This document shows, piece after piece, positions 1 to 64,000 of a DNA stretch of 64,000 nucleotides. Under the pieces are notes generated by a model. That model was given only the letters and a program-made list of their open reading frames with translations, searched no databases and was not told the origin of the DNA. The DNA comes from Tubiluchus corallicola (lineage: Eukaryota; Animalia; Priapulida): NCBI GenBank assembly GCA_030141605.1, contig JAQGDQ010000006.1:1451067-1515066 (forward strand). The letters run 5' to 3'. The position numbers were made by a program, and so were the translations under genes. The number at the start of each line of letters is the position of its first letter. The stretch's first letter is position 1.

Positions 1-181
1 TTAGGTAGTTGTAGGTGGATCGCTTGTGCTGGGGAACGCGATTCCAGGGGTGGGGCGGTTTGAAGGTGTAGTTGTGATATATGCCGGTCTCTATTTCGCG
101 AATTACCAAATTTTTGACCAGGTATTCTTCTTTTCCGCACTGGAAGGCATCTACGGTGAGAACTATGCTCGATTCAGACAT
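1..181 (-). CDS. Second (inverted) copy of the nuclease-fold-like ORF, 5' part; runs off the window
   Basis: Mirror of 913-1093 (MSESSIVLTVDAFQCGKEEY...). Confidence 0.7.
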   Translation of the reverse strand, partial: MSESSIVLTVDAFQCGKEEYLVKNLVIREIETGIYHNYTFKPPHPWNRVPQHKRSTYNYL

Positions 182-455
182 CTGTGACGATGGGGGGTCC
201 TTCTACGCCGTCGGCAACGAGTTTTCCTTCGATGACGATTTGCTTGTGATTGTTCACAAATTCCAGAGACTTGATTTTTTCGAAGGTGTATTTTTTTATG
301 ACCTTGTTGGGGGCACTCTTGCGTGCGTTGGCGCGCTTGCCGCCCCGCGTCCCCGCTTGTTGTTGTTGCTTGCGAGGAACGGTGGTTAGAGGTTGTTTGA
401 AATCCTGCAAGAGAAGAAGAACAATAGTTATAGTATTGTTGTTCGCTAACGACAA
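174..455 (-). CDS. Small basic hypothetical protein of the element (possibly a 3' exon starting at 404)
   Basis: 93-codon ORF with only a TTG start. A polypyrimidine acceptor (ttcttcttctcttgcag) ends at 405 on the minus strand. Its stop overlaps the next ATG (gATGtcTGA), a virus-like packing. Confidence 0.5.
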   Translation of the reverse strand: MSLANNNTITIVLLLLQDFKQPLTTVPRKQQQQAGTRGGKRANARKSAPNKVIKKYTFEKIKSLEFVNNHKQIVIEGKLVADGVEGPPIVTDV

Positions 456-713
456 CTAGGCATTTTTGATGAGCCATTCTTTCAGATTTCTAGGTTTTTT
501 GGGGGCAGTGGGGGTGAGCACCATCGGCGGCGATGGAGGGGGCGTCGCGGAAATTACGAGTTTGTCTTCTTCTTTATCATCATCTTTCTCCTCTTCCTCC
601 TCCTCCTCTCGAAAGATGTCCATTCGTGTCCCTCTCTCGCGTCTGCTTTTACACGGAGGGGCGGAGGTGCCGACGTCCGTGTCTGGCAGACTTCTTTCCG
701 TCCAGTTTGTCCA
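456..713 (-). CDS. C-terminal fragment of an acidic/Pro-rich hypothetical protein truncated by the inversion breakpoint
   Basis: NWTNWTERSLP...EEEEEEEKDDDKEED...TPPPSPP...PKKPRNLKEWLIKNA*. The part of ORF 456..1013 beyond 713 is antisense of other genes. Confidence 0.5.
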   Translation of the reverse strand, partial: WTNWTERSLPDTDVGTSAPPCKSRRERGTRMDIFREEEEEEEKDDDKEEDKLVISATPPPSPPMVLTPTAPKKPRNLKEWLIKNA

Positions 714-912
714 GTTCCTCGCAAGCAACAACAACAAGCGGGGACGCGGGGCGGCAAGCGCGCCAACGCACGCAAGAGTGCCCCCAACAAGGTCATAAAA
801 AAATACACCTTCGAAAAAATCAAGTCTCTGGAATTTGTGAACAATCACAAGCAAATCGTCATCGAAGGAAAACTCGTTGCCGACGGCGTAGAAGGACCCC
901 CCATCGTCACAG

Positions 913-1425
913 ATGTCTGAATCGAGCATAGTTCTCACCGTAGATGCCTTCCAGTGCGGAAAAGAAGAATACCTGGTCAAAAATTTGGTAATTCGCGAAA
1001 TAGAGACCGGCATATATCACAACTACACCTTCAAACCGCCCCACCCCTGGAATCGTGTTCCCCAGCACAAGCGATCCACCTACAACTACCTAATCAGACA
1101 CATACACGGCATCTCGTGGGAGGAGGGAATGATCGAGTACGCAGAATTGGAAAACATTCTACGACAGACCACCAGAGGCAGGATCACCTACGTCAAGGGA
1201 GCAGAGATGTACGATTTCGTCAAAAAACATCTCCCCAAAAATCGCGTGGTCATACGCGTAGAGGATCTGGAAAGCGACCACCCGCCGCCCGCCATACGTT
1301 GGCAGAGCAACGGACGAGGCAGAGCGGTTCGGGCGTCCGAAACGATTGCCAACTATGTTCTAACGTGTCAGTCCAAACGGTCAACATCGTCGCCACGGCT
1401 TCGTTCTCGCAGCGCTTCGATCTGA
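913..1425 (+). CDS. Putative DnaQ/RNase H-fold nuclease-like protein of the type seen in animal Polintons/adintoviruses, 170 aa
   Basis: ATG start. Pattern VDAF...YLVKNL...YTFKPPHPW...YLIRHIHGISWEEGMIEY...ITYVKG...VEDL resembles the recurrent D.EGF..KE..FKPP..W..HG..W..G..Y..YVKG family. The first acidic motif looks degenerate. Assignment from memory of motifs. Confidence 0.6.
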   Translation: MSESSIVLTVDAFQCGKEEYLVKNLVIREIETGIYHNYTFKPPHPWNRVPQHKRSTYNYLIRHIHGISWEEGMIEYAELENILRQTTRGRITYVKGAEMYDFVKKHLPKNRVVIRVEDLESDHPPPAIRWQSNGRGRAVRASETIANYVLTCQSKRSTSSPRLRSRSASI

Positions 1426-1955
1426 ACGAACTCCGGCGGAGAACGGGCGGAAGACGCTACGAAAGAAAACCGCAAATGCTTCTGCTAAAGCGACTGGGCG
1501 GGACGCTGATGATTTTTGCCTCCGGCTCCGTGGTGGCCAACGGTTTTTCGGAGGAAAAAGTACTACGCAATGCGATCGAAGAACTCTCGAAAGGTCTCGG
1601 ACTGACGCCCGCCGACGGGATCGCAATTCGCACCATCACCGCCAGAGCCAAAATTCGCTGCAGATTGAAACTGGGTGCACTGTACGAAGAACTCGTTCGT
1701 CCTTCGACGCATTCTTTTAGAGAAGTGTTTTACGAAGTGGAACTATTTCCCAAACTAACTTGCAAATGCGAGCAAATTACTCTGAACATTTTTCACACCG
1801 GAAGCATAATAATGATGGGCGGGACAAAGGTCGAGGATTTCTCTCACGTTTTCCGCAAATTTAACGAATTCGTTTTTAACAACAATAACGTTTGTCTGTA
1901 TCACATCGACGACGACGACGACAATCCATGTACTCGCTCGTCGTCATTAGTGTAG
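1365..1955 (+). CDS. Divergent intronless TATA-binding protein (TBP)-like protein, about 196 aa, GTG start
   Basis: Two TBP repeats: VNIVATA..RFDLNEL..Y..TLMIFASGSVVANG and TITARA..LKLGALY..FYEVELFPKL..TLNIFHTGSIIMMGG. Canonical TBP reads NIVST..LDL..LIFSSGKMVCTGA and YEPELFPGL..LIFVSGKVVLTGA. Confidence 0.9.
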   Translation: MSVQTVNIVATASFSQRFDLNELRRRTGGRRYERKPQMLLLKRLGGTLMIFASGSVVANGFSEEKVLRNAIEELSKGLGLTPADGIAIRTITARAKIRCRLKLGALYEELVRPSTHSFREVFYEVELFPKLTCKCEQITLNIFHTGSIIMMGGTKVEDFSHVFRKFNEFVFNNNNVCLYHIDDDDDNPCTRSSSLV

Positions 1956-2612
1956 TTTTACTGTAATTTGCATAATTTGTGTAATTTGCGAAAAAAACGT
2001 AAAATGTAGAACTATCACGTCACCATAATAATAATAATAATCTAGTTTTAGCACGTATGTATTTTGCATAAAAAAATGTAAAAAAAATTTTTTGTAATCC
2101 ATCAATAAAAAAGATTTGTGAAAATGCATTTATCGAACTTTGGCGTTTGAAATAAATCTCCACACACACACACACACACACACATCTAAACCCGCGAGAG
2201 AAGTGGTCGCGGAAAAGGGAGGGCACCCGAGAGAGAGAAGTGGTCGCGGAAAAGGGCCGGCACTGCGCGAGTGGGGGGGGGGAAGATTTCCCTCATTGCC
2301 TGCAATGGACGATTCCACGTGACGGAGGGGTGGGTTGCAGGGGGGGTGTCCCCGACCCCCGGGACGGACGTTTGCACGCGGCGGAGGGGTGGCAGGGGCT
2401 CGCCAATTAGCGCCAATTAGCACTAATTAGTCCTCGGCGGGAACTCCACTTCTCCCTTTTTCTTCGTTTGAGGCGCTTTTTACCTCGTTTCACACACTTT
2501 CACACGCTTTCGCGCACTTTCACACACTTTCACGCGCTTTCACACACTTTCACATGCTTTCGCGCGGTTTTGCGCGGTTTAAAATGGGGTGTCAAAAAAA
2601 GAAGCCATCCAG

Positions 2613-2654
2613 GGGTCAATGAACTTTGGTCACGTGACCTAGAGTTCAAGGTCA
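2613..2654. promoter_or_regulatory. Cluster of nuclear-receptor half-sites and an E-box in the element's terminal region
   Basis: GGGTCA-a-TGAACT (IR1), palindrome GGTCACGTGACC, and AGTTCA-AGGTCA (DR0) within 42 bp. Function is not shown. Confidence 0.4.
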
Positions 2655-2841
2655 TTCGATCCAAATGAAGCCATGCGGGAGGGAAAAACTGCAAAATTTT
2701 TACCTCGTTTCACACGCCTTTTCTTCGTTTTTCTTTGTTTTTCGCGCTTTTTCGTCGATTTCGGTCACGTGCGCACTTTCACACGGGTTTTCACACTTTT
2801 TTAGGGGTTTTCGCGGATTTTCGCACTTTTTTAGGGGTGTT

Positions 2842-2882
2842 TTTCCCCACCCCCCCGGGCAGCCAAAGGGGGGGTGGGGAAA
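2842..2882. repeat. Perfect 15-bp-stem hairpin 29 bp from the putative terminus
   Basis: tttccccaccccccc / 11-nt loop / gggggggtggggaaa. Confidence 0.9.
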
Positions 2883-3569
2883 TCGGCCAGAGGCAAAACA
2901 TCTATACTACTGAGGCCGAAATACCTGGGAAAGTTAAAGTTGTCCAAAAGTCCTGTAAGACCTTCACGACCTGGTAGAACCAGTACTTGACAATAATTAT
3001 TGAAATTATCTCTTTTACTGCATTTGTCACAGACTGGCAATGTTTAAAGCATGTGACGCAAATTGTGGCCTTCAACTATAGGTGACAGTAGGAAATTGTA
3101 ATAAAACCCATCGACCTGTTTTTGTGACTTGATTATAGCTTTTTAATATAAGGCTTAGTTCTAAAAATCCTAACGTTGATTGGGATAATATGTACAAAAC
3201 ATCCAGGTTACAGAATTCTTGAGATTCGAACACCAAACTATCACTGTCCGTTTGTTTTGGATTTTTTTTTGTAAAAAATAAACCAAAACAGGTACACCAG
3301 GGGAAAGTAATTTTTGTTATTATAATGGTTATTCTCGCGGTGATTTCCAAATAGTTGTTTTCTTTTTATAGTTTGAGAAATCTGGTAGTCGAAAAGAAGA
3401 ATTAGTACTGGAAGATTTTCTTGCCAGTTTAAAAGAGACTGAGTTTATGGATGCACATTTTGCGAAGTACAAGGTATAGGCTGTGCTTTCTTTAAATATC
3501 AAATAATTCATTGTTTAGTATAAGTGACCCAGTCAACATTTTCTTCTTTTTTCTCTTGCTCTTTCTCCT

Positions 3570-4490: not shown

Positions 4491-17474
<12,984 letters not shown>

Positions 17475-25030: not shown

Positions 25031-28000
25031 TACTCATGGGATTGAATTAAGAACGCCCGCGTTCACACGTGTCTGTGTTGTCTAGTCATTGGTTTGAATT
25101 CCAAAGGTTTCTGGTTCAAATATATTGTGTTCACTTTACCAATAACTGATAATCTCGAATTTAAACTTATAACTAATTAGCTAATTATTTTATTTAATTA
25201 CTTTCCAGAAGTTCCAAGTCATCTTCATGACTACGATTCCTACGTGCGGTTCTGCTTTTACCCGGGGGAGGCAGCTCGACGTCCCGCGCCAGCCACGTTC
25301 TTACCAGAAGACATCGACCCCTCAACTTGCACGCACATCGTGTTTGGATACGCCACAATATTGGATAATGAGCTGACGGCCAAGTCAGAGTCAGATTTAG
25401 GTAAGTTGCTTGTTGCAAAGTGCTTTTGCCAATATGGTGTTATTGTTTACCATCCAAAGAAATTTCTGTGCTCATTGCGATGATGATGATGATTATGGCG
25501 ACGACGACAACGATGATGATTCAGCTTTAAGTAGAACAGACAAACAAAGCTGCAATGAGATTTTTTATTGCCCACGATAAATTACGAATTACAACTACAT
25601 AACAGAGATTAGTCACACAGGGCAACTACACGTAGCATTTTTTAATTTTTTTATATGACTGTCTTTCGTATCGAACACGCAACCTCCTGTACGGAGCTCG
25701 GACGTTTTACCTATCAGGCTACGCAGCCACTGTATTTGCCTAAGTGTTTGAAGAGAGACAGTACGACGTGACTATTAAACGAATACACAACATTGTCGTT
25801 CTGGCTATTGAGATTGCAAGCTGAGGTAAAAAGGTATCGAGGTTTAGGGACTGAAGTCGTGGACACTGGGTAGTGGGTTTTGAGTTTAAACAGGTACTGT
25901 GGGTAGAAATACCAAAAAACGTCAGGTCTATTTTATACACTCCCGAAATACTTTTCAGATTGCACGCAAAGTGTTAAAATTACTTGAAGATCACCAGTCG
26001 AATATTCATTCACGAAAAAAGGTTTATAAATAGAAGTAAATAAGTATAATCATTTTACTAGTTTTACAATCTGTTCACAAACCTACTAAATTGACAATAT
26101 GATAAAAATCATGGTTTTTTGGTTCTTTTCTTAGAGAAGCGGTACGAAATCTCGACTTCACACTTAATCGCATTTAGATATAGATCTAGTAACTAATTTA
26201 ATCTACAGCCAAAGGGAAGAAATAAAATGAGGTCTGCAACATCTTGATGGCTCTGCTTGTTAAATGGTTTCAGCTTATCGTAGCCCCGAATGCACCACTC
26301 ATATTTTACGCCTAGCACACGAACGCAGCGCACCCTGTGCTTAACTCCCCAGCCTGTGGTATCATTGATGACTTTCTTTTCTGGCTAATTATCACATTGG
26401 ACACAATTCAATTCAATTCAATAATTTTTTATTTGGCTGATTTGCAACACAAAACATTAAACTATATACGTAATGATAGCAACAATGCGATAACAAAAAC
26501 AGGTATGGTTTGAAAATTCTACAGAGTAGGATCGTGAACTTTCCAGACTCACCCCGAGACATGTCTTCTGTTCCTGAAATGGTAACTCGCGTAATTTCGT
26601 AACTTTGAAGCTCGTAGCTCTAATTTTAAATGCTTTTACTCACTTTCTGCATATAGTATTTTTTAGCACTTCTAGTTTTAGTCTAGGTAAATTTTAATTG
26701 TATGTTTTTGTGGCTTTTATGCTGAAATAAATAGTACAATGAATGGATCAATCATAAATCAATCATTCTGACATGCTCTTCTCCTCACTTCTTAGCTTAA
26801 CAAACCCAAATGAGGTTCAGTTTTAGTTATTTCAATGGCAAATAAAAAAAATTGATTTAATTTTGCTTTAATTTTGTTGCGTTTTTCCAACTTTTTTGTT
26901 AAATGATAAAGCACATAAAAATTGACGATATAAAACACATTGAAAAATCCCTGGTAAAGACCTACTTAACAATAACCAAGGTACACGGTGCAAGAAAGCA
27001 ACAAACTGAACAAAGACCTGATCAAGTAAAAGTGCATTCAAAGCTGTGGTACAAGGAAAAAACCTAATGAAGCAATGAGTATTGAAGTAACTTTCCACAA
27101 ATTTTATATTTTGTCAGAATTTCAAGAGGCCATTTATGCACTTTAACCCATGTCACAAAAATGATGTGTCGCATTCATTGTTAAACCAAATTTTGAGCTA
27201 AACGTTTTTTAAAACATCGTTATTGCATTGTTTAAGACGCTGGTTGGGCTTTAAATTGCTATTTGCAGTAATACCTAACTAAAAAATCCGTTTGCACTAA
27301 CTGTTTCTGTCGAAGCATTTAATAAAATTCTTTTTTAGAATTGTTTCAGAGAATCCTGGCCCTAAAAAACCAAAATCCAGATCTGAAGGTACTGCTAGCA
27401 GTAGGCGGTTGGGCAGAAGGTTCACAGCGTTTCAGCAATATGGCGTGGTCTCTCAACTCACGTCTTACCTTTGTTAATTCTGTACTTCATTTCCTGAGAC
27501 AATATGGTTTCGATGGACTAAATGTCGACTGGGAGTTTCCGGGCTACGAACGAAGAGGTGGACATCCTTCAGATAGAGACAATTTACCACTGCTCTTAGA
27601 GGTATTGATATAAAAATATTAGTAGTATTTGACAGGCTATAACACTCTAACTGCTTTGCTCTTGAAATTCATCTTTTCAAGCATTTTAAAGCAGGTTGTT
27701 AGTTCTGCTAGTTGACCGTCGGTTCTTCGTGTCTATATGGTGTAGTTTTGGCTTGAACAAATTAATGCAAAGTGAGGACTCTTCTTACCCAATATCTCTG
27801 TGTCAATTTTAAATTTATGTACAATTGTGTGTTTAATTTTTAGGAGCTTCACAAGATCTTTACGATGGAAGCCAAGTTTTCCGGCAACAATCAACTAATC
27901 TTGGCCACCACGATACCGGGCGCTAAATACTGGATAGATTTGGGTTACGACATCCCGAAAATCTCTTCGTGCGTTTATAAATACGTTTCTTATTTTTGAT

Positions 28001-31000
28001 GAAAATAATTGGTACTAATAACGCTATTTAAAAGTTGAATTATCAGTGAATGATAAATTATTATGTAGAAGATAACCGCCCTGCAGGTCAAGTGACTAAC
28101 CTCAAAATTGTCCTTGAAATCTATCATCTACTACCATTAATCCTTGCAAAGCGCCTTGTGTAAAAAACATCTCTGGTTATTTGTGCTCAAAGAGAAAAAG
28201 CTTCTCATAATATTCTTGATTTCTAAATGCAGGTTTAGTGATTATTTACCAATGATGACTTATCACCTTAATGGAATATGGAACAAACACGCTGGTCATG
28301 GAAGTCCTTTGCATCCTCACTCCTACGATGTGGACAAAACTGCGAATATTGTAAGTGAAGAGGTCGCCTTTGAAATATCTTTGTTTTTAGTAATTTCAGT
28401 TAAGTGTAAGACAACTTGGAAAATCACACACAAGCAAGGGCAGCATTTTTGTGTCATGTGTGTGAAAGGGATAAATTATTGGAAAATCACGGAAGCACTT
28501 TTGAGACTAATAGCTATGAAGATGCGGTATGATCGTTTTCCTTAGATAACCTAGTAATCTTCCATGCCATATAGTGTTCCTTGGTTTTTAGGGTACTTGG
28601 ATAACCTAATAATCTTCCATGCCATGTAGTGTTCCTTAGTTTTTAGTGTACTTGGATAACCTAATAATCTTCCATGCCATGTAGTGTTCCTTAGTTTTTA
28701 GTGTACTTAGATAATCTAATAATCTTCCATGCCATATAATGTTCCTTAGTTTTTAGTGTACTTAGATAACCTAATAATCTTCCATGCCATGTAGTGTTCC
28801 TTAGTTTTTAGGGTACTTAAATAACCTAGTAATCTTTCATGTCATATAGCGTTCCTTAGTTTTTAGTGTACTTAGATAATCTAATAATCTTCCATGCCAT
28901 GTAATGTTCCTTAGTTTTTAGTGTACTTAGATAATCTAATAATCTTCCATGCCATGTAATGTTCCTTAGTTTTTAGCGTACTTAGATAATCTAATAATCT
29001 TCCATGCCATATAATGTTCTTTAGTTTTTAGTGTACTTAGATAATCTAATAATCTTCCATGCCATGTAGTGTTCCTTAGTTTTTAGTGTACTTAGATAAT
29101 CTATTAATCTTCCATGCCATGTAGTGTTGCTTAGTTTTTAGTGTACTTAGATAATCTAATAATCTTCCATGCCATGTAGTGTTCCTTAGTTTTTAGTGTA
29201 TTTAGATAATCTAATAATCTTCCATGCCATATAACGTTCCTTAGTTTTTAGTGTACTTAGACAATCTAATAATCTTCCATGCCATATAGCGTTCCTTAGT
29301 TTTTAGTGTACTTAGATAATTTAATAATCTTCCATGCCATATAGCGTTCCTTAGTTTTTAGTGTACTTAGATAACCTAAATCCTATTATCGTTGCTTTTT
29401 TTTAAGGAATTCATCGTCCAATATTGGATAAACCATGGAACGGATCCAAAGAAATTGCTGCTGGGAATTCCTCTTTTTGGACAGACTTACACTCTCCAAG
29501 ACCCATCTGACCACATGTTAAATGCACCTATTGTAGGAAGTGGCAAGGCTGGACACATGTATCAACAGGAAGGAATGATGCCGTACTACGAGGTTTGTGC
29601 CCACAAAACTTTGCTTGAGCTTATTCTTATTAAGATTTTCGGCTTCTTGTGGATTGGTAAACACCAATCTTATTACTGCTTAAGTGATAGATTTAGCCAA
29701 CTGAACAACTGATAATGCTTCTTGCGAATATTTTTTGAATGACTTACAGATCTACGTCTTCACTCATAATAAATGAATAAATTACGACAAAATTTGCAGA
29801 TTATAAAGATTCGCAAATCTGTTTCGGAAAATTCACAAACATTTTAATGGTACCAATGTGCGGCATTTGTCACATTTGCAAATAAATAAAAATTGTGGTT
29901 TATTTCTATTAATTTTAATGACTTGCATTACTTAAATCTTTTGTAGGTGTGTTCTGAAGTGATGCCAAGCTATGAAAGCTTTTGGGTTGAAGATCAGCTT
30001 GTTCCATTTGCTTACAAAAATGACCAATGGATTGGCTACGAGGATTCAAGGAGTATTAGTGAAAAGGTAACAATCCTTTGCAGTATATTTGGACAAGTTC
30101 TAGAACTTCCATCACCAAACTTTCACTAATTTTTTTGTACGTATTGTTGACCACAGTTAGCATTCAACTGGTTACTGATCACCAACTTTTGTAATTTTTG
30201 CAACGCATTTGCATGTTATCAACGGGCCTCATTTTTCCCTGACTGACAATAGGGTTCGTCTAACTAGTTTTTGTTTGTAGGTCAAGTATGTGATCGACAA
30301 TCACCTTGGAGGCGTTATGGTCTGGGCATTAGGTTTTGATGATTTTAAAGGTCATTGTAATCATGGAAGGAATCCTCTGTTGACCACAATAAAAACAGAA
30401 TTGCTGGAAGTGACACAGGTGACCTATGTAATCCACACAAAATCTTCAAATGTTTTACAGCAGTTGCCGCACAAGTATGAAACGGGTGCAGTAGAACCAC
30501 ATTATGCAACATCACATCACGGTGAGACGTACAGGCGTCATACTGTGCAACATCGGCGACACTACGTACAACATGTATCCCATCAGCAAGAAGGACAACA
30601 CCCTGTTCATGGATATGATGAGCACCATGCCTACCATGGGCACAGTCGCAGTCGCAGAGTGGAGTCATCATATTCACGGCACGGGAATTATCACGATGCG
30701 TATCCTCATCAAACACAAGGAAGTTACATACCATATCAAGAACACGAAATGATTCCCCACGAAACGTACAATTACGAAACATATCCACACAGAGATGCAT
30801 ATGAAGTCTACCCTAGCAACAGCTATCCTTATGACGCTCACAATTATGTAATATATCTGCCGGAGCAGTATGACGTGCACCCTCATCAAACACATGAGAA
30901 TTACGGTGCATATTCAGCACATGGACAGTATGATGATTTCGAAGTACATCCTCGTGAAAGTTCTGAAATATATCCAGTAAACGAGCCGCATGCGTACCCT

Positions 31001-33433
31001 TATGAAAAAAGCAATTATTACGATACTTACCCTGGGTCTGAACTCTATGAAGTTCATCCTTATGAAAGTTATGGTTATGAAACACACCCTGATGAACTGT
31101 ATGCTGAACATGGACATTATGAAGGGCATCCTCGTGAAACATACCCTGAACATGGACATTATGAAGGGCATCCTCGTGAAACATATCCTGAACATGGACA
31201 TTATGAAGGGCATCCTCGTGAAACATACCCTGAACATGGACATTATGAAGTGCATCCTCGTGAAACATACCCTGAACATGGACATTATGAAGTGCATCCT
31301 CGTGAAACATACCCTGAACATGGACATTATGAAGTGCATCCTCATGAAACATACCCTGAACATGGACATTATGAAGTGCATCCTCGTGAAACATACCCTG
31401 AACATGGACACTATGAAGTGCATCCTCATGAAACATACCCTGAACATGGACATTATGAAGTGCATCCTCGTGAAACATACCCTGAACATGGACATTATGA
31501 AGTGCTTCCTCATGAAACATACCCTGAACATGGACACTATGAAGTGCTTCCTCATGAAACATACCCTGAACATGGACACTATGAAGTGCATCCTCATGAA
31601 ACATACCCTGAACATGGACACTATGAAGTGCATCCTCGTGAAACATACCCTGAACATGGACATTATGAAGTGCATCCTCGTGAAACATACCCTGAACATG
31701 GACATTATGAAGTGCATCCTCATGAAACATACCCTGAACATGGACATTATGAAGTGCATCCTCATGAAACATACCCTGAACATGGACATTATGAAGTGCT
31801 TCCTCATGAAACATACCCTGAACATGGACACTATGAAGTGCATCCTCATGAAGCGTACCCTGAACATGGACACTATGAAGTGCTTCCTCATGAAACATAC
31901 CCTGAACATGGACACTATGAAGTGCATCCTCATGAAACATACCCTGAACATGGACACTATGAAGTGCATCCTCGTGAAACATACCCTGAACATGGACATT
32001 ATGAAGTGCATCCTCGTGAAACATACCCTGAACATGGACATTATGAAGTGCATCCTCATGAAACATACCCTGAACATGGACATTATGAAGTGCATCCTCA
32101 TGAAACATACCCTGAACATGGACATTATGAAGTGCTTCCTCATGAAACATACCCTGAACATGGACACTATGAAGTGCATCCTCATGAAACATACCCTGAA
32201 CATGGACATTATGAAGTGCTTCCTCATGAAACATACCCTGAACATGGACACTATGAAGTGCATCCTCATGAAACATACCCTGAACATGGACACTATGAAG
32301 TGCATCCTCATGAAACGTACCCTGAACATGGACACTATGAAGTTCATCCTAATGAATTATATCCTCATGAAGAGTATCCTGAACATGGACACTATGAAGT
32401 GCATCCTCATGAAACGTATCCTGAACATGGACACTATGAAGTGCATCCTCATGAAGAGTATCCTGAACATGGACACTATGAAGTGCATCCTCATGAAACG
32501 TATCCTGAACATGGACACTATGAAGTGCATCCTCATGAAACGTACCCTGAACATGGACACTATGAAGTGCATCCTCATGAAACGTATCCTGAATATGGAC
32601 ACTATGAAGTGCATCCTCATGAAACGTACCCTGAATATGGACACTATGAAGTGCATCCTCATGAAACGTACCCTGAACATGGACACTATGAAGTGCATCC
32701 TCATGAAACGTACCCTGAACATGGACACTATGAAGTGCATCCTCATGAAACGTACCCTGAACATGGACACTATGAAGTGCATCCTCATGAAACGTACCCT
32801 GAACATGGACACTATGAAGTGCATCCTCATGAAACATACCCTGAACATGGACACGATGCATATGAAAGCTATCCAGGCCACTATGATACGTATCCATCAC
32901 ATGTTTCCACAGTTGGTATTCCATTTCCACACCATACAGCTTATTCTTATGAAGGGTATCCTACAAATCAATCCTATGAACAATATCCACGTAATACTTA
33001 CAACGATTATGAATTACCTGGTACTGTTGGACACGAGACATATCCCAGTAATACTCATGGGGGCGAAAGCCTTGGCCCAGTAGTTGCCCAGGAAGAGCAG
33101 AGGCCATATAATCCAGAATTGGAGGAAACAAAACTTTCGGATTCCGGTTCATCTGCTTCTGGAAGAAACGGCGCTGTGGGAATGGCTACAGAAAGTACGC
33201 AATGTGAGGTGAAAGGACCAGGTCCCTCTTGCTCCGGACATTCGCACATGGTAATGGCAAATCCAATAAACTGTCGCAAGTACTATCTATGTCTGTGGCA
33301 GAACACACCCAATGAAATGCGTGTTCCAATGAACTGCCCGGAGGGAACAGTCTTTCATCCATTCAAATACATGTGTGATGATAAGGAAAATGTTGATACA
33401 TCCGTAATATGTAAATGTGGAGAAGAGTCGTGA
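23806..33433 (+). CDS. Secreted GH18 chitinase-like protein with long His/Glu/Tyr-rich repeat linker and C-terminal CBM14; exons 23806-23875, 25209-25400, 27339-27601, 27844-27968, 28233-28350, 29407-29592, 29947-30066, 30281-33433 (about 1408 aa)
   Basis: Signal peptide MQGIGVCLVLVLLAGLSS; PEDIDPSTCTHIVFGYA, KVLLAVGGW, FDGLNVDWEFP, KLLLGIPLFG, QWIGYED, GGVMVWALGFDDF; Cys-patterned C-terminus (NCRKYYLC..CPEGTVF..C). Exon phases are compatible. Confidence 0.93.
28545..29378. repeat. 55-bp intronic minisatellite, about 15 copies
   Basis: Unit gataatctaataatcttccatgccatgtagtgttccttagtttttagtgtactta. Confidence 0.95.
31106..32856 (+). repeat. Coding 42-bp tandem repeat, about 42 units of EHGHYEVHPHETYP
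   Basis: In frame within the chitinase last exon; one in-frame 15-bp insertion near 32350. Confidence 0.95.
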
Positions 33434-40892: not shown

Positions 40893-42955
40893 TGTAAAAC
40901 TATGTCACGAAGATTTTGCATATTGTGTTTTTTTGTTCCACATGTGTGCGCCATTTTTGTTCCAGTGGCAAAATTCGATTTTATGCGTGATAAACAATTT
41001 ACAGTTTTAAATAAATCTTTTTGTATTAAATAATTGGAACTTATCCGTGATTGTATTTATATTTTGGTACGGAACTGCCGGGAAAAGAGACCTTTAGATG
41101 AGTATGGCTGAGTGTGATAAAATTAAACACTCTAGAAGTAGATCCAAGGGTTGGGTGAAGACTGGCATAAAATTACTAAAAGAGGCGATGTCTAGTGAAA
41201 CGCCTAACTTTGTGTTTGTTCAGCAAAAATTAGAGAACCTTGGAAAATATATTGCCACCTTTAATGAAACAGAAGTGTAGTTAGAAGATTATTTAGAAGG
41301 TGAAGAACTTGAACAAGCGATTATAGAGGCAAGTGAATTAATCAACACAGCGGAATTAATTTCTGCTCAGGCACTAAGTTTGCTAAAACCAGATTCAAGA
41401 CCATGTAGTCCTAGTGATTTCCAGCGACATGCAAGTGATAATGATTTTGTCTTGCGACGAGTGAATAACTGTGATTTAGCACGTAGTGAAAGTGCAGCGA
41501 ATTTACCAACTAATAATGTAGTCGGTGCAGAAGTCACCAACATAAAACTACCTAAATTGCAACTGCCAACTTTCAGTGGTGACCCATTGAAGTTTTACGA
41601 ATTTTGGGACATGTTCGTTGCCTCTGTGGATGCTAAACCTGTACCAGACGTTCATAAACTTGTTTACTTAAAGAGCTTACTTAAAGGTGAAGCTGCTCAT
41701 GTGATAGATGGCCTGCAGCCTGTAGATGGCAATTATAAGGAAGCTGTTTCTTTGTTAAAGGAGAGATTTGGTGATAAAGACGCAATCGAGATGTCATTGT
41801 TAAAAAAACTGTGGCAGTTAAAGCCCATCACCGATTCGAAAAATATTGAAGCACAAGGAAGTTTTGTAGATGAGCTTGAAGTTGTTATAAGAGGCCTCAG
41901 TGCAATGGGACTTAGTACAGAAGAATTAGGTAAAACCCTAAAACCTCTCTTTCTAGCAAAAATTCCATATGCTTGGCGTGTTGAATGGGAGTGAATGAGA
42001 AGGCGTGAAGATGACAGCGTGAAGATGACACAACATGCTTTGAAAAATTTCGACAGTTCATGAAAAGCGAAGTTGATATTAGACGAAAGGCTGCTTCATA
42101 TACTCGCCATAGAGAGTCTGGTGAATTTAGTCGTCGTGCTGGGTATAAGAATTTAGGTGTGAGGAGCACCCTAGATTCAGTTTCTCTTCTTCAGTCTAGT
42201 GATTTTTGTGGAAACACCAAAAATGCGCCTACAGCTTCAAAGAATTCCCATTGTTTATTTTGTGGCAGAGCTCAACATATGTGGCTTGATTGTGCGTCTC
42301 TTCCTACTAAGACTTTGCAAGAGCGAAAACAGAAGGTTGCTGAGCAGCACCGTTGTTTTTTGTGTCTTGGTTTAAACCACAGAGCTGATACTTGCCGTAA
42401 ACCTCCATGCAACCGATGTAGTAAATGGCATCATTATTTATTGTGCAATTCAATTGCTGGCTGCTTCCAGGTGAGTCCTTATGTTAAAAGAGGTTCAAAT
42501 ACTTCTGATGCAAGTGTTGATGTTCCATCAGTTCATTTACAGTCTTTTTGTACGAATGTTGTGTTCTTAATGACTGCGACTGCTGTTTTGGAAGATACCA
42601 AATCGTCAATTCCTATTCGTGTTTTTATAAATCCTGGTGCCACTACCTCTCTTATTTTGTGTGATGTTGCAGAGCGAGCAGGTTGCGAAATTATAGGCGA
42701 GCGTAATCTTTCGTTAGCTATTATGGGTGGACTTAGCACACCGCAACAGAAATGCCACATTGTTCGTGCTAAACTTCGAACAAATACAGGAAAAATTGTG
42801 ACCTTTAATGCCACCACCCAAGATAAACTAGTGAGACCCTTTCCGGCATGTTCTGAGGGTGATTGGTTAGGAGACTTAAAGGGCATGATCCTAGGTGACC
42901 CAGAGATTCTTTGTGGCAATCCACGAGAAATTCATCTACTGGTTGGTATCCCCCA
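40893..42955 (+). mobile_element. BEL/Pao LTR retrotransposon 5' remnant (LTR-like segment, PBS-like site, gag-protease pseudogene) in a 5S spacer
   Basis: KLPKLQLPTFSGDPLKFYEFWDMF..KLVYLKSLLKGEA..NY..RFG (DUF1759-like); three Cys/His knuckles; protease-like RVFINPGATTSLI; stop near 41280 and frameshift near 41995; tggtacggaac at 41065; truncated before RT. Confidence 0.9.
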
Positions 42956-43291
42956 AAGATGATTTTTGATTTTTATAAAAAAAAATCAAAACAGTTTACC
43001 TTGTTCTTGTGTTTCGCTTAATCTATCCATTATTTCTACGTTATCTGTCTGTAACAAAATGCAGAAGTTGAGCAACCTCGAACCTGGTTTTGCGTTTGAA
43101 TGGGTGACTGCCCAGGACTTGTAAATTATGTCATATTTAAAAGGCAATATACTTGAGCACGGTATTTCCACCTCCCTGATACTTTACAATTTCATGTGAT
43201 ATTTTTATTTATACTTTGCATTACAATACTAGAAATATTTGCTGTTCATGTACATCATTTCTATGTTAACTCGTCTTAAGAAACTGCTAAT

Positions 43292-50810: not shown

Positions 50811-51034
50811 CTAGAATTCACAAATATACGGAAATTTTGCTGTATCACACGAGAAGTCATTCCACGTGTTCCCATTTGCCCGCAAGATGGCGCAGCTTTC
50901 GCCATCGCCGTAATTTTCTGGTTGGCCATCTGCTACATCCCAAGAAGTAAAAAGGGCAGGTCGACCTGTTGCAAACCACCTCCAGTCACCCTCCTCGTGT
51001 ATGTCCATTAAACCAATCCAAAAATGCTCACCAG
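50811..51034 (-). CDS. C-type lectin domain, terminal exon (upstream exons not identified; may be a pseudogene)
   Basis: FWIGLMD..EGDWRW..SW..GQPEN..ESCA..WNDFSC..YICE*; AG acceptor at 51036-51035. Confidence 0.85.
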
Positions 51035-51634
51035 CTTTATTAAAAACAAAATATAATTAATATTAAATTTGGTTATTTACCATTATATTTTCATATAATA
51101 TAACAGTTATTTAACTTTTATACATTCCTCGGCAATTATAACGTACTTTACCACTCCCATGAAACACTAAAATAACAAATATTACCAGTGATTTTTTTGA
51201 AATTTTTTTGCTCAAACAGCCTGCAGAAAAAAACGTTCTGACGGCACCTGGTGGGACTCTCGAAGGGAGATATACAGCTCTTTAGAAAGGGGAAGAACAG
51301 GGCTATACGATGATGTGGGCTATATTAGGACACGTCCATCAAGAGCAGTGACGACGACTTAATTAGATGTTCTATTTTTGGCAATTTTCGCTTGGAAAAC
51401 TGCTGACGCAAAGCCATTGTTGTGACGTCATCCATTATACTCTGCCTGTAACTTTAATTCAGTAAAAGCTTCTGGCTTTGCGTTAGATAAACAGACAAAC
51501 ACTAGGTAGAATGTTTGCGCATATTTGATTATGAGTGGATTTATAAGCAAAATTTTTTTGCGGGGCCTTTGCTAGTTTGTTTATTAATTCACTCAATCGT
51601 TTATTCACACACAATCATTCATTCATTTATTCAG

Positions 51635-55588: not shown

Positions 55589-63648
<8,060 letters not shown>

Positions 63649-64000
63649 CTACAGCAAACAATAAAAACTAGTTGACAACGTTTCTGATGTGGAGAGAAAC
63701 TGGAGTTTTTGCAAACAGTGGCTATAGAATTAGTTACAGAAGCAGTTAGAATTTCAAAAAGTGTCAACATTTTATCTGAAAATCACAATTTTGATTTTTA
63801 TTGAATTCACATTACTGCATTACCTATGAACTGTACTTCAAAATGAAATCGCAACTTGTAACTTTTCCACATGTGACCTTTGGGTCAAAGGTAGGTTAAC
63901 TCCTGTCAATTTATGCCATTCAGTTCATCTCGTCAAGACCTTTCATCAGATATGCTACAAGCTGTAGTTCAGGTCAACACTAGAAAGTTTTTGCTCCTCG

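Follow-up and report, generated by a model that had tools for sequence, protein, structure and literature searches.

A 64,000-nucleotide stretch of the Tubiluchus corallicola genome (hereafter the window) begins inside a Polinton/Maverick-like element, a dispersed many-copy repeat that carries its own minimal TATA-binding protein (TBP). By its sequence relationships this TBP belongs to a clade of Polinton-encoded mini-TBPs, and on balance it is likely a viral promoter factor. It would recognise a TATA-box variant that in relatives precedes packaging, integrase and capsid genes, and the product of the adjoining gene, ORF170, would serve as co-factor or regulator. Several other readings of the gene, which overlap in part with this one, are weighed below where the evidence touches them.

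The two-repeat TBP fold that the first-pass annotation had read from the letters is real. Over the frame 1365-1955 the Pfam profile PF00352, comparison with which had been proposed as a check, matches in two stretches with 78.3 bits (cut-off 22.9; E 4e-22), an AlphaFold2 model computed from a 14-row alignment has a pLDDT of 90.7, and solved TBPs match that model in Foldseek with TM 0.65-0.76 at 18-26% identity; two repeats above the Pfam cut-off and a saddle fold place the protein in the TBP superfamily. The residue pattern had been read correctly as well. Three of the four intercalating Phe of a canonical TBP are kept (F51, F128 and F143), P36-Q37-M38 stands in place of the first-repeat RF, the second-repeat Asn has become T90, so that one of the two central Asn is kept, and both acidic residues of the stirrup, E124 and E126, are present; two phosphate-contact lysines are lost (S55, S147). 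Compared with cellular TBP (PF00352; PDB 1cdw, 1ytb), the likeness lies in the saddle fold, the first Asn, the three Phe and the acidic stirrup, whereas the differences lie in the P-x-M that replaces the RF loop and in the change of the second-repeat Asn, Val and Leu to polar residues, which is fixed across the Polinton TBP family.

The right-hand boundary of the element is sharp. From the TBP stop codon (1955) to the ACTACT at 2906-2911 there are 956 nt, in agreement with the figure of about 950 bp given earlier, and in contigs of public sequencing runs from two studies the depth over 1-2911 is two to three orders of magnitude greater than that of the flank, the drop being located at the ACTACT end, at 2911. 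In run X2 a 753-nt contig over the TBP gene has a depth of 536 against 3.9 on a flank contig, values that are depths and not copy numbers; X1 and X3 derive from one sample, which may be the source sample of the window, and X2 is a run of another study. The GC-rich block described by the first-pass annotation is evident as a GC content of 0.50 over 1-2000 against 0.35 in the remaining window, and as a CpG observed/expected ratio of 1.29 against 0.80. Outside this block the window carries intron-split exons of RhoGEF, chitinase, C-type lectin and P450 genes, in accordance with an animal host. An (ACT)2 end motif is carried by vertebrate Mavericks, as stated in a passage of PMC8097293, and of the (AGT)2//(ACT)2 termini the right one is present here while the left one lies beyond the window. 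Within 1-2911 none of the Polinton core genes (pPolB, integrase, ATPase, protease, capsid) was found. The likeness to Polintons and Mavericks consists of the (ACT)2 end, the high copy number and relatives with pPolB, rve-chromo integrase, ATPase and capsid genes, whereas the copy itself is foldback-like with no core gene in view. At the element's edge, a 752-nt flank contig of X1 ceases to match precisely at 2912, 44 or more of its letters being left unmatched, and a contig of X3 crosses the element end into the flank (2912-3538), a contrast that possibly reflects an empty allele and a polymorphic insertion. In X2, the stretch 403-700 has a depth of about 3000 against about 550 for the TBP gene, suggesting related sub-families that possess this stretch without the TBP end.

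The left part of the element is an inverted repeat of 380 nt (1-380 and 714-1093; 1 mismatch, 38/1056) that continues past the left edge of the window. At the junction, 9 nt (714-722) are common to both sides: high-depth contigs coming from the left reach 722 and then pass into other sequence, those coming from the right reach 714 and then enter the 381 side, and in the run contigs the spacer sequence 381-713 is what ordinarily lies ahead of gene A. We infer from this an ordinary arrangement of acidic gene, gene A, ORF170, TBP and end, with this copy folded back at the shared 9 nt, where a template switch would have produced it. The copy is probably a non-autonomous foldback, and would measure roughly 4.7 kb if its left arm extends to a terminus beyond the window. 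The inverted repeat may instead be an assembly mirror, as the arms are identical but for 1 of 380 nt and none of the listed contig pieces bridges the 713/714 junction (275 further pieces stand outside that list). Gene A itself (714-920) has no Pfam match.

Table 1. Features of the element (1-2911) and of its surroundings in the window; a dot marks a feature without strand.
Feature	Position	Strand	Remarks
Inverted copy of 714-1093	1-380	-	Gene A 3' part and ORF170 5' part
Spacer	381-713	-	Acidic ORF piece (459-713), then splice-acceptor-like site at 405 leading into gene A
Shared 9-nt stretch at foldback junction	714-722	.	High-depth contigs break on either side
Gene A, 3' part	714-920	+	68 codons, no ATG; stop overlaps ORF170 start
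ORF170 ('X'), 170-aa protein	913-1425	+	61-nt overlap with TBP frame; homologue of the TBP-neighbouring gene of Polinton contigs; predicted partner of TBP stirrup
TBP-like gene	1365-1955	+	196 codons from GTG 1365; Pfam, AlphaFold2, Foldseek
Non-coding end region	1956-2911	+	AATAAA at 2104 and 2151; (CA)n; short direct repeats; hairpin 2842-2882; ACTACT 2906-2911
First 6 host bases, candidate target-site duplication	2912-2917	+	Partner would sit outside the window
RhoGEF-PH exons, host	11555-14655	+	Intron-split
GH18 chitinase, host	27326-33433		Intron-split; last exon with very long His/Glu/Tyr/Pro repeat before CBM14 domain
DUF1759 frame	41281-42959		Typical of BEL/Pao LTR retrotransposon gag
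C-type lectin exons, host	50814-51056	-	Intron-split
Cytochrome P450 exons, host	55592-63667	-	Intron-split

How the TBP frame is begun is less plain than how it ends. The frame is open from 921, yet its first in-frame ATG is at 1476, codon 38, within repeat 1, and the nearest near-cognate codons are GTG at 1365 and ACG at 1377. The description of the gene as intronless accordingly stands for the open frame 1365-1955 and not for its 5' end. The commonest form in the independent run X2 (record 11) likewise lacks an in-frame ATG before codon 38, and in P0003, the protein closest to the window TBP, the start is called at the same Met. Pyrimidine-rich, CAG-ending acceptor-like sites lie directly before gene A (405, minus strand) and before the ORF170 ATG (912, plus strand), hinting at spliced transcripts in this element, and the TBP frame may, to judge from these sequence features, be started by splicing or at one of the two near-cognate codons. 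A divergent sub-family in X2 tracks ORF170 to 1364 (region 1246-1364) and then continues as other sequence resembling a splice acceptor; more distant TBP-bearing contigs are present in run X5. A frameshift fusion of ORF170 with TBP was considered, as the TBP frame crosses all of ORF170 with 0 stops against 4.6 expected (0.2% of shuffles). This reading was dropped: few stops occur in the TBP gene's own -1 frame as well (4 against 9.7), the -1 frame of gene A has 0 stops, and relatives overlap in the other frame.

The missing early ATG, together with the foldback structure and the absence of core genes from view, would also fit a TBP gene that is a passenger in this amplified family, not or no longer fully translated and spread non-autonomously, with a function only in relatives. 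This is unlikely, given that the frame is intact and folds with a pLDDT of 91 from residue 1, that the relative P0003 exists at 59% identity, and that in divergent X5 contigs N-I-V-A-T is preserved ahead of codon 38, the changes falling at third positions and the length differing by an in-frame 3 nt.

P0003 is the one close relative of the window protein (P0002); among the 109 representatives at E 0.001 or better, all others are 23-38% identical. In a first tree P0002 fell in a 14-row branch marked by P-x-M instead of the first-repeat RF, an alignment too diverse for a DNA scan, and a 15-row sister branch (A3) was used in its place, yielding 60 metagenome contigs; the window's own sub-branch consists of P0003, P0004, P0005 and P0009, and all contig linkage data come from the sister branch. 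Scans of IMG/VR with the TBP, ORF170 and alignment A3 gave no relative. An IQ-TREE analysis of 43 rows, picked from a larger set, without a metazoan TBP or TRF2 row and with several long branches, groups P0002 with all 7 Polinton-linked TBPs (a clade of 18 rows, 98/94), and 9 cellular eukaryotic TBPs form a separate group (100/98) with P0002 outside it. The earlier view of the gene as part of the element, rather than a retrogene of the host, agrees with the tree.

The linkage to Polinton genes that had been anticipated was likewise found in the sister branch. Integrase is present in 23 of the 60 contigs and pPolB in 5 (either in 26), ATPase in 35, PLA2 in 23 and capsid in 12; at least one Polinton-type gene occurs in 55 of 60 contigs, and in 25 of 25 of those of at least 3 kb. 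These genes were labelled by similarity to seed ORFs, of which those for rve, DNA_pol_B_2 and PLA2 exceed the Pfam cut-off and those for ATPase and capsid match weakly, and a further label marks genes that we take to be proteases. One 19-kb contig (L047) has a GC-rich palindrome at 1-40, two convergent gene blocks and several minor-capsid-like genes. Among 44 distinct TBPs of these contigs the loop Pro is invariant (44/44), the second Asn is replaced by Ser or Thr in 44/44, Val by Thr in 43/44 and Leu by Asn in 40/44, and the window protein has all four changes (P36, T90, T92 and N141). A host TBP or TRF retrogene, captured or inserted by chance, could be argued for from the eukaryotic-type stirrup sequence and from the lack of metazoan TBP and TRF2 rows in the tree. 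It is highly improbable for a protein that is 21-24% identical by structure to the human TBP core, that groups with Polinton TBPs, and that resides in a high-copy element with a sharp ACTACT end.

What the Polinton TBPs would bind is suggested by a motif, ATAAAC[AG], which in the sister branch, as distinct from the window's own branch, is found no more than 100 nt ahead of 58 of 78 de-duplicated starts of PLA2, ATPase, integrase and capsid genes against 4.4% of 4686 tiles; the contigs are interrelated, so that p-values overstate the enrichment. Starts with no upstream stop in the contig, no ATG in the first 60 codons or less than 100 nt upstream had been dropped before counting. By gene, the motif precedes PLA2 in 12/14, ATPase in 26/34, integrase in 9/15, major capsid in 6/6, minor capsid-like genes in 5/9, ORF170-like genes in 12/16, pPolB in 1/2, protease in 0/3 and TBP in 2/41. 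The variants ATAAAAR, ATAAAGR and ATAAATR are found at 6, 0 and 7 of the 78 starts, respectively, and canonical TATAWAWR precedes 9 of 41 TBP starts against a background of 3.9%, and 8 of 34 ATPase starts. Three long spacers separate pPolB from PLA2, and each has the motif 37-38 nt ahead of the PLA2 ATG, some 600 nt away from the preceding stop. The motif is strand-specific: all 14 of its copies in the 14.4-kb contig L003 lie on the coding strand. Overlap with a stop codon or with K-H-K-R codons is seen for some copies. A reading of the motif as a poly(A) signal is disfavoured by the T or C that mostly precedes it and by its fixed distance to the ATG in the long spacers, although 6 of 9 convergent TBP/protease gaps hold a copy on the minus strand. 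The motif is absent from 1-2911, a fragment without a structural gene. The non-TATA promoters that the first-pass annotation had offered as the target give way to a variant TATA box as the likely one, ATAAAC[AG] in relatives.

The form of the motif can be related to the altered DNA face of the protein. Of the two Phe pairs of a TBP, that of the first repeat serves base step 7/8. In the TBP-DNA complexes described in a passage of PMC1935006, base steps 1/2 and 7/8 are each opened by one of the two Phe pairs. TATAAAC has C at position 7, and the TBP family has lost one Phe of the first-repeat pair; we infer that this loss allows C at position 7 to be accepted. The promoter-factor reading rests on the occurrence of ATAAAC[AG] before core genes of relatives but rarely before TBP starts, which more often have a canonical TATA. 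Under it, host TBP would first transcribe the viral TBP gene, and the viral TBP, minus one step-7/8 Phe, would tolerate C at position 7 and would bring host Pol II to late promoters. Such a protein would be expected to prefer TATAAAC[AG] over TATAAAAG or random DNA, and the 5' ends of capsid and ATPase transcripts would be expected about 25-30 nt downstream of ATAAAC[AG].

Two further readings would detach the protein from the element's promoters. It could be a decoy that sequesters host TBP partners (TFIIB, NC2, Mot1, TAF1), in keeping with the loss of one Phe, one Asn and the two lysines from a protein whose stirrup is kept; this is quite improbable, since the family as a whole shares the same, non-random changes on the DNA face, and in relatives a TATA variant stands before genes of the element itself. 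Still less probable is a DNA-binding role outside transcription, for example at termini or on displaced single strands in protein-primed replication. According to a passage of PMC12209930, single-stranded DNA is the preferred ligand of Giardia TBP, in which three Phe are missing, but the window protein keeps three Phe, and the enriched motif follows gene starts on the coding strand and not the ends.

The gene beside TBP is part of the same picture. A profile of the TBP-adjacent genes of the contigs, constructed without ORF170 itself, picks out ORF170 from 1951 frames at E 2.7e-8, and a homologue is found in 22 of 60 contigs, adjoining TBP in all 22, before it with an overlap in 14, as in the window, and after it in 8; many of these 22 are near-duplicates, and short contigs favour adjacency. 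In six contigs (L026 at 2063-3034, L028, L029, L032, L033 and L043) TBP is followed by a tandem pair of ORF170-like paralogues, most of them with an ATAAAC[AG] of their own in front. ORF170 has no Pfam or PDB profile match, none of 52 candidates from a word-indexed search is homologous, and its single-sequence model (pLDDT 37) has no fold match above Z 3.8. An Atlas Maelstrom cluster at 0.86 makes likeness to Maelstrom/DEDD proteins a lead only; acidic D/E-x-E is present in 11 of 16 rows of ORF170 relatives, and ORF170 of the window has T9-x-D11.

Prediction of a complex between TBP (residues 1-180) and ORF170 (1-157) scored 0.65, 0.68 and 0.65 against 0.00, 0.25 and 0.21 for controls, with at least 97% contact agreement between runs and a partner pLDDT of 88. 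The mark reached by this pair is also reached by 51 of 78 solved against 2 of 108 mismatched microbial pairs and by 39 of 65 solved against 2 of 126 unrelated eukaryotic pairs, and it is passed by 7 of 44 neighbouring genes drawn blind. The predicted interface on TBP comprises residues 123-129, the acidic stirrup, and the model thus supports binding of the ORF170 protein there, at the position where a cellular TBP contacts TFIIB. Several predicted interface residues of ORF170 are poorly conserved in 16 relatives. The interface includes the DNA-intercalating F128, so in this model ORF170 could block, and not help, DNA binding.

As the stirrup is the predicted binding site of ORF170, TFIIB recruitment cannot be read clearly from its conservation; in the modelled complex the acidic stirrup may serve the ORF170 partner rather than TFIIB, and ORF170 would act as co-factor or regulator at TFIIB's position. 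The viral TBP could nonetheless work alone and recruit host TFIIB through the acidic stirrup, ORF170 being a mere neighbour or an occasional inhibitor. The second stirrup Glu is kept in 42 of 44 contig TBPs and the first in 28 of 44 (Asp in 8), and L003 combines TBP and ATAAAC[AG] with no ORF170 homologue even by lenient search, which speak for this arrangement; that the same loop is the predicted ORF170 site, and that it has drifted to LDLENFP in the group L044-L054, whose ORF170 homologue lies ahead of TBP, leave it doubtful. Alongside the promoter-factor reading, a bolder and rather less likely idea is that Polintons possess a two-protein switch for late transcription, in which a mini-TBP tuned to the C-at-7 TATA variant would be joined by a partner of dead-nuclease fold that clamps the TFIIB stirrup. 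This partner family could also grip host TBP, because the cellular stirrup (YEPELFP) is nearly the same.

Viral TBPs of other kinds offer a comparison. TBP homologues of Nucleocytoviricota are the best viral structure matches to the window protein (E 3e-10 and weaker) at 12-22% identity. These viruses are far larger than Polinton-type elements, and many encode their own RNA polymerase. Nearer in likely mode of action are the TBP mimics of beta- and gammaherpesviruses (EBV BcRF1, KSHV ORF24, HCMV UL87), which, as a passage of PMC4893493 describes, act with viral co-factors at late promoters with a variant TATA (TATT) before structural genes. Both systems have a viral TBP fold and a variant TATA before structural genes, here in relatives, whereas the Polinton protein is a bare core of fewer than 200 aa with the motif ATAAAC[AG] and a single predicted partner of a different kind; instead of a large, multidomain protein and a viral complex of six members, there is a 196-aa core in a small element. 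BcRF1 matches the model of the window protein at a Foldseek E of 1e-3. By analogy, the Polinton mini-TBP likely works like the herpesvirus mimics, the relatedness shown extending no further than the fold.

A TBP is not wholly new to such genomes. The legend of Fig. 5 in Starrett 2021 (PMC8502044) labels a TBP in an adintovirus-type genome, which makes the idea put forward as novel by the first-pass annotation less so, while the partner and the motif counts are additions to it. The likeness is a TBP-like gene in a Polinton/adintovirus-type genome; the label belongs to a section on non-animal datasets, and family, residue, promoter and partner analyses do not appear in the parts of the article consulted. 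The text of its supplement has no match to TBP, and term searches of PMC12220804, PMC8097293, PMC6431247 and bioRxiv 10.64898/2026.10.13.758929 gave no relevant passage in the portions covered. For Polinton or adintovirus TBP and for Maelstrom/DEDD proteins in these elements, a literature search mostly outside subscription papers and bioRxiv supplements returned the Starrett legend only, and for an ORF170-type predicted partner of Polinton TBP it returned nothing. The additions made here are the counts of ATAAAC[AG] on independent contigs and the predicted stirrup partner.

Maverick particles had not been observed according to a passage of PMC8097293, and the finding bears on the question of how Polintons and Mavericks turn on their capsid and packaging genes. 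A dedicated viral TBP with a defined motif would imply a herpesvirus-like programme of early and late genes, one that could be tested at the bench and that could serve as a marker for active elements. The contact between TBP and ORF170, if true, would give a function to an unannotated family of Polinton genes and would represent a second, minimal way of hijacking Pol II, and a grip of ORF170 on host TBP, if it too is true, would provide the element with a means of diverting or silencing initiation by host Pol II.
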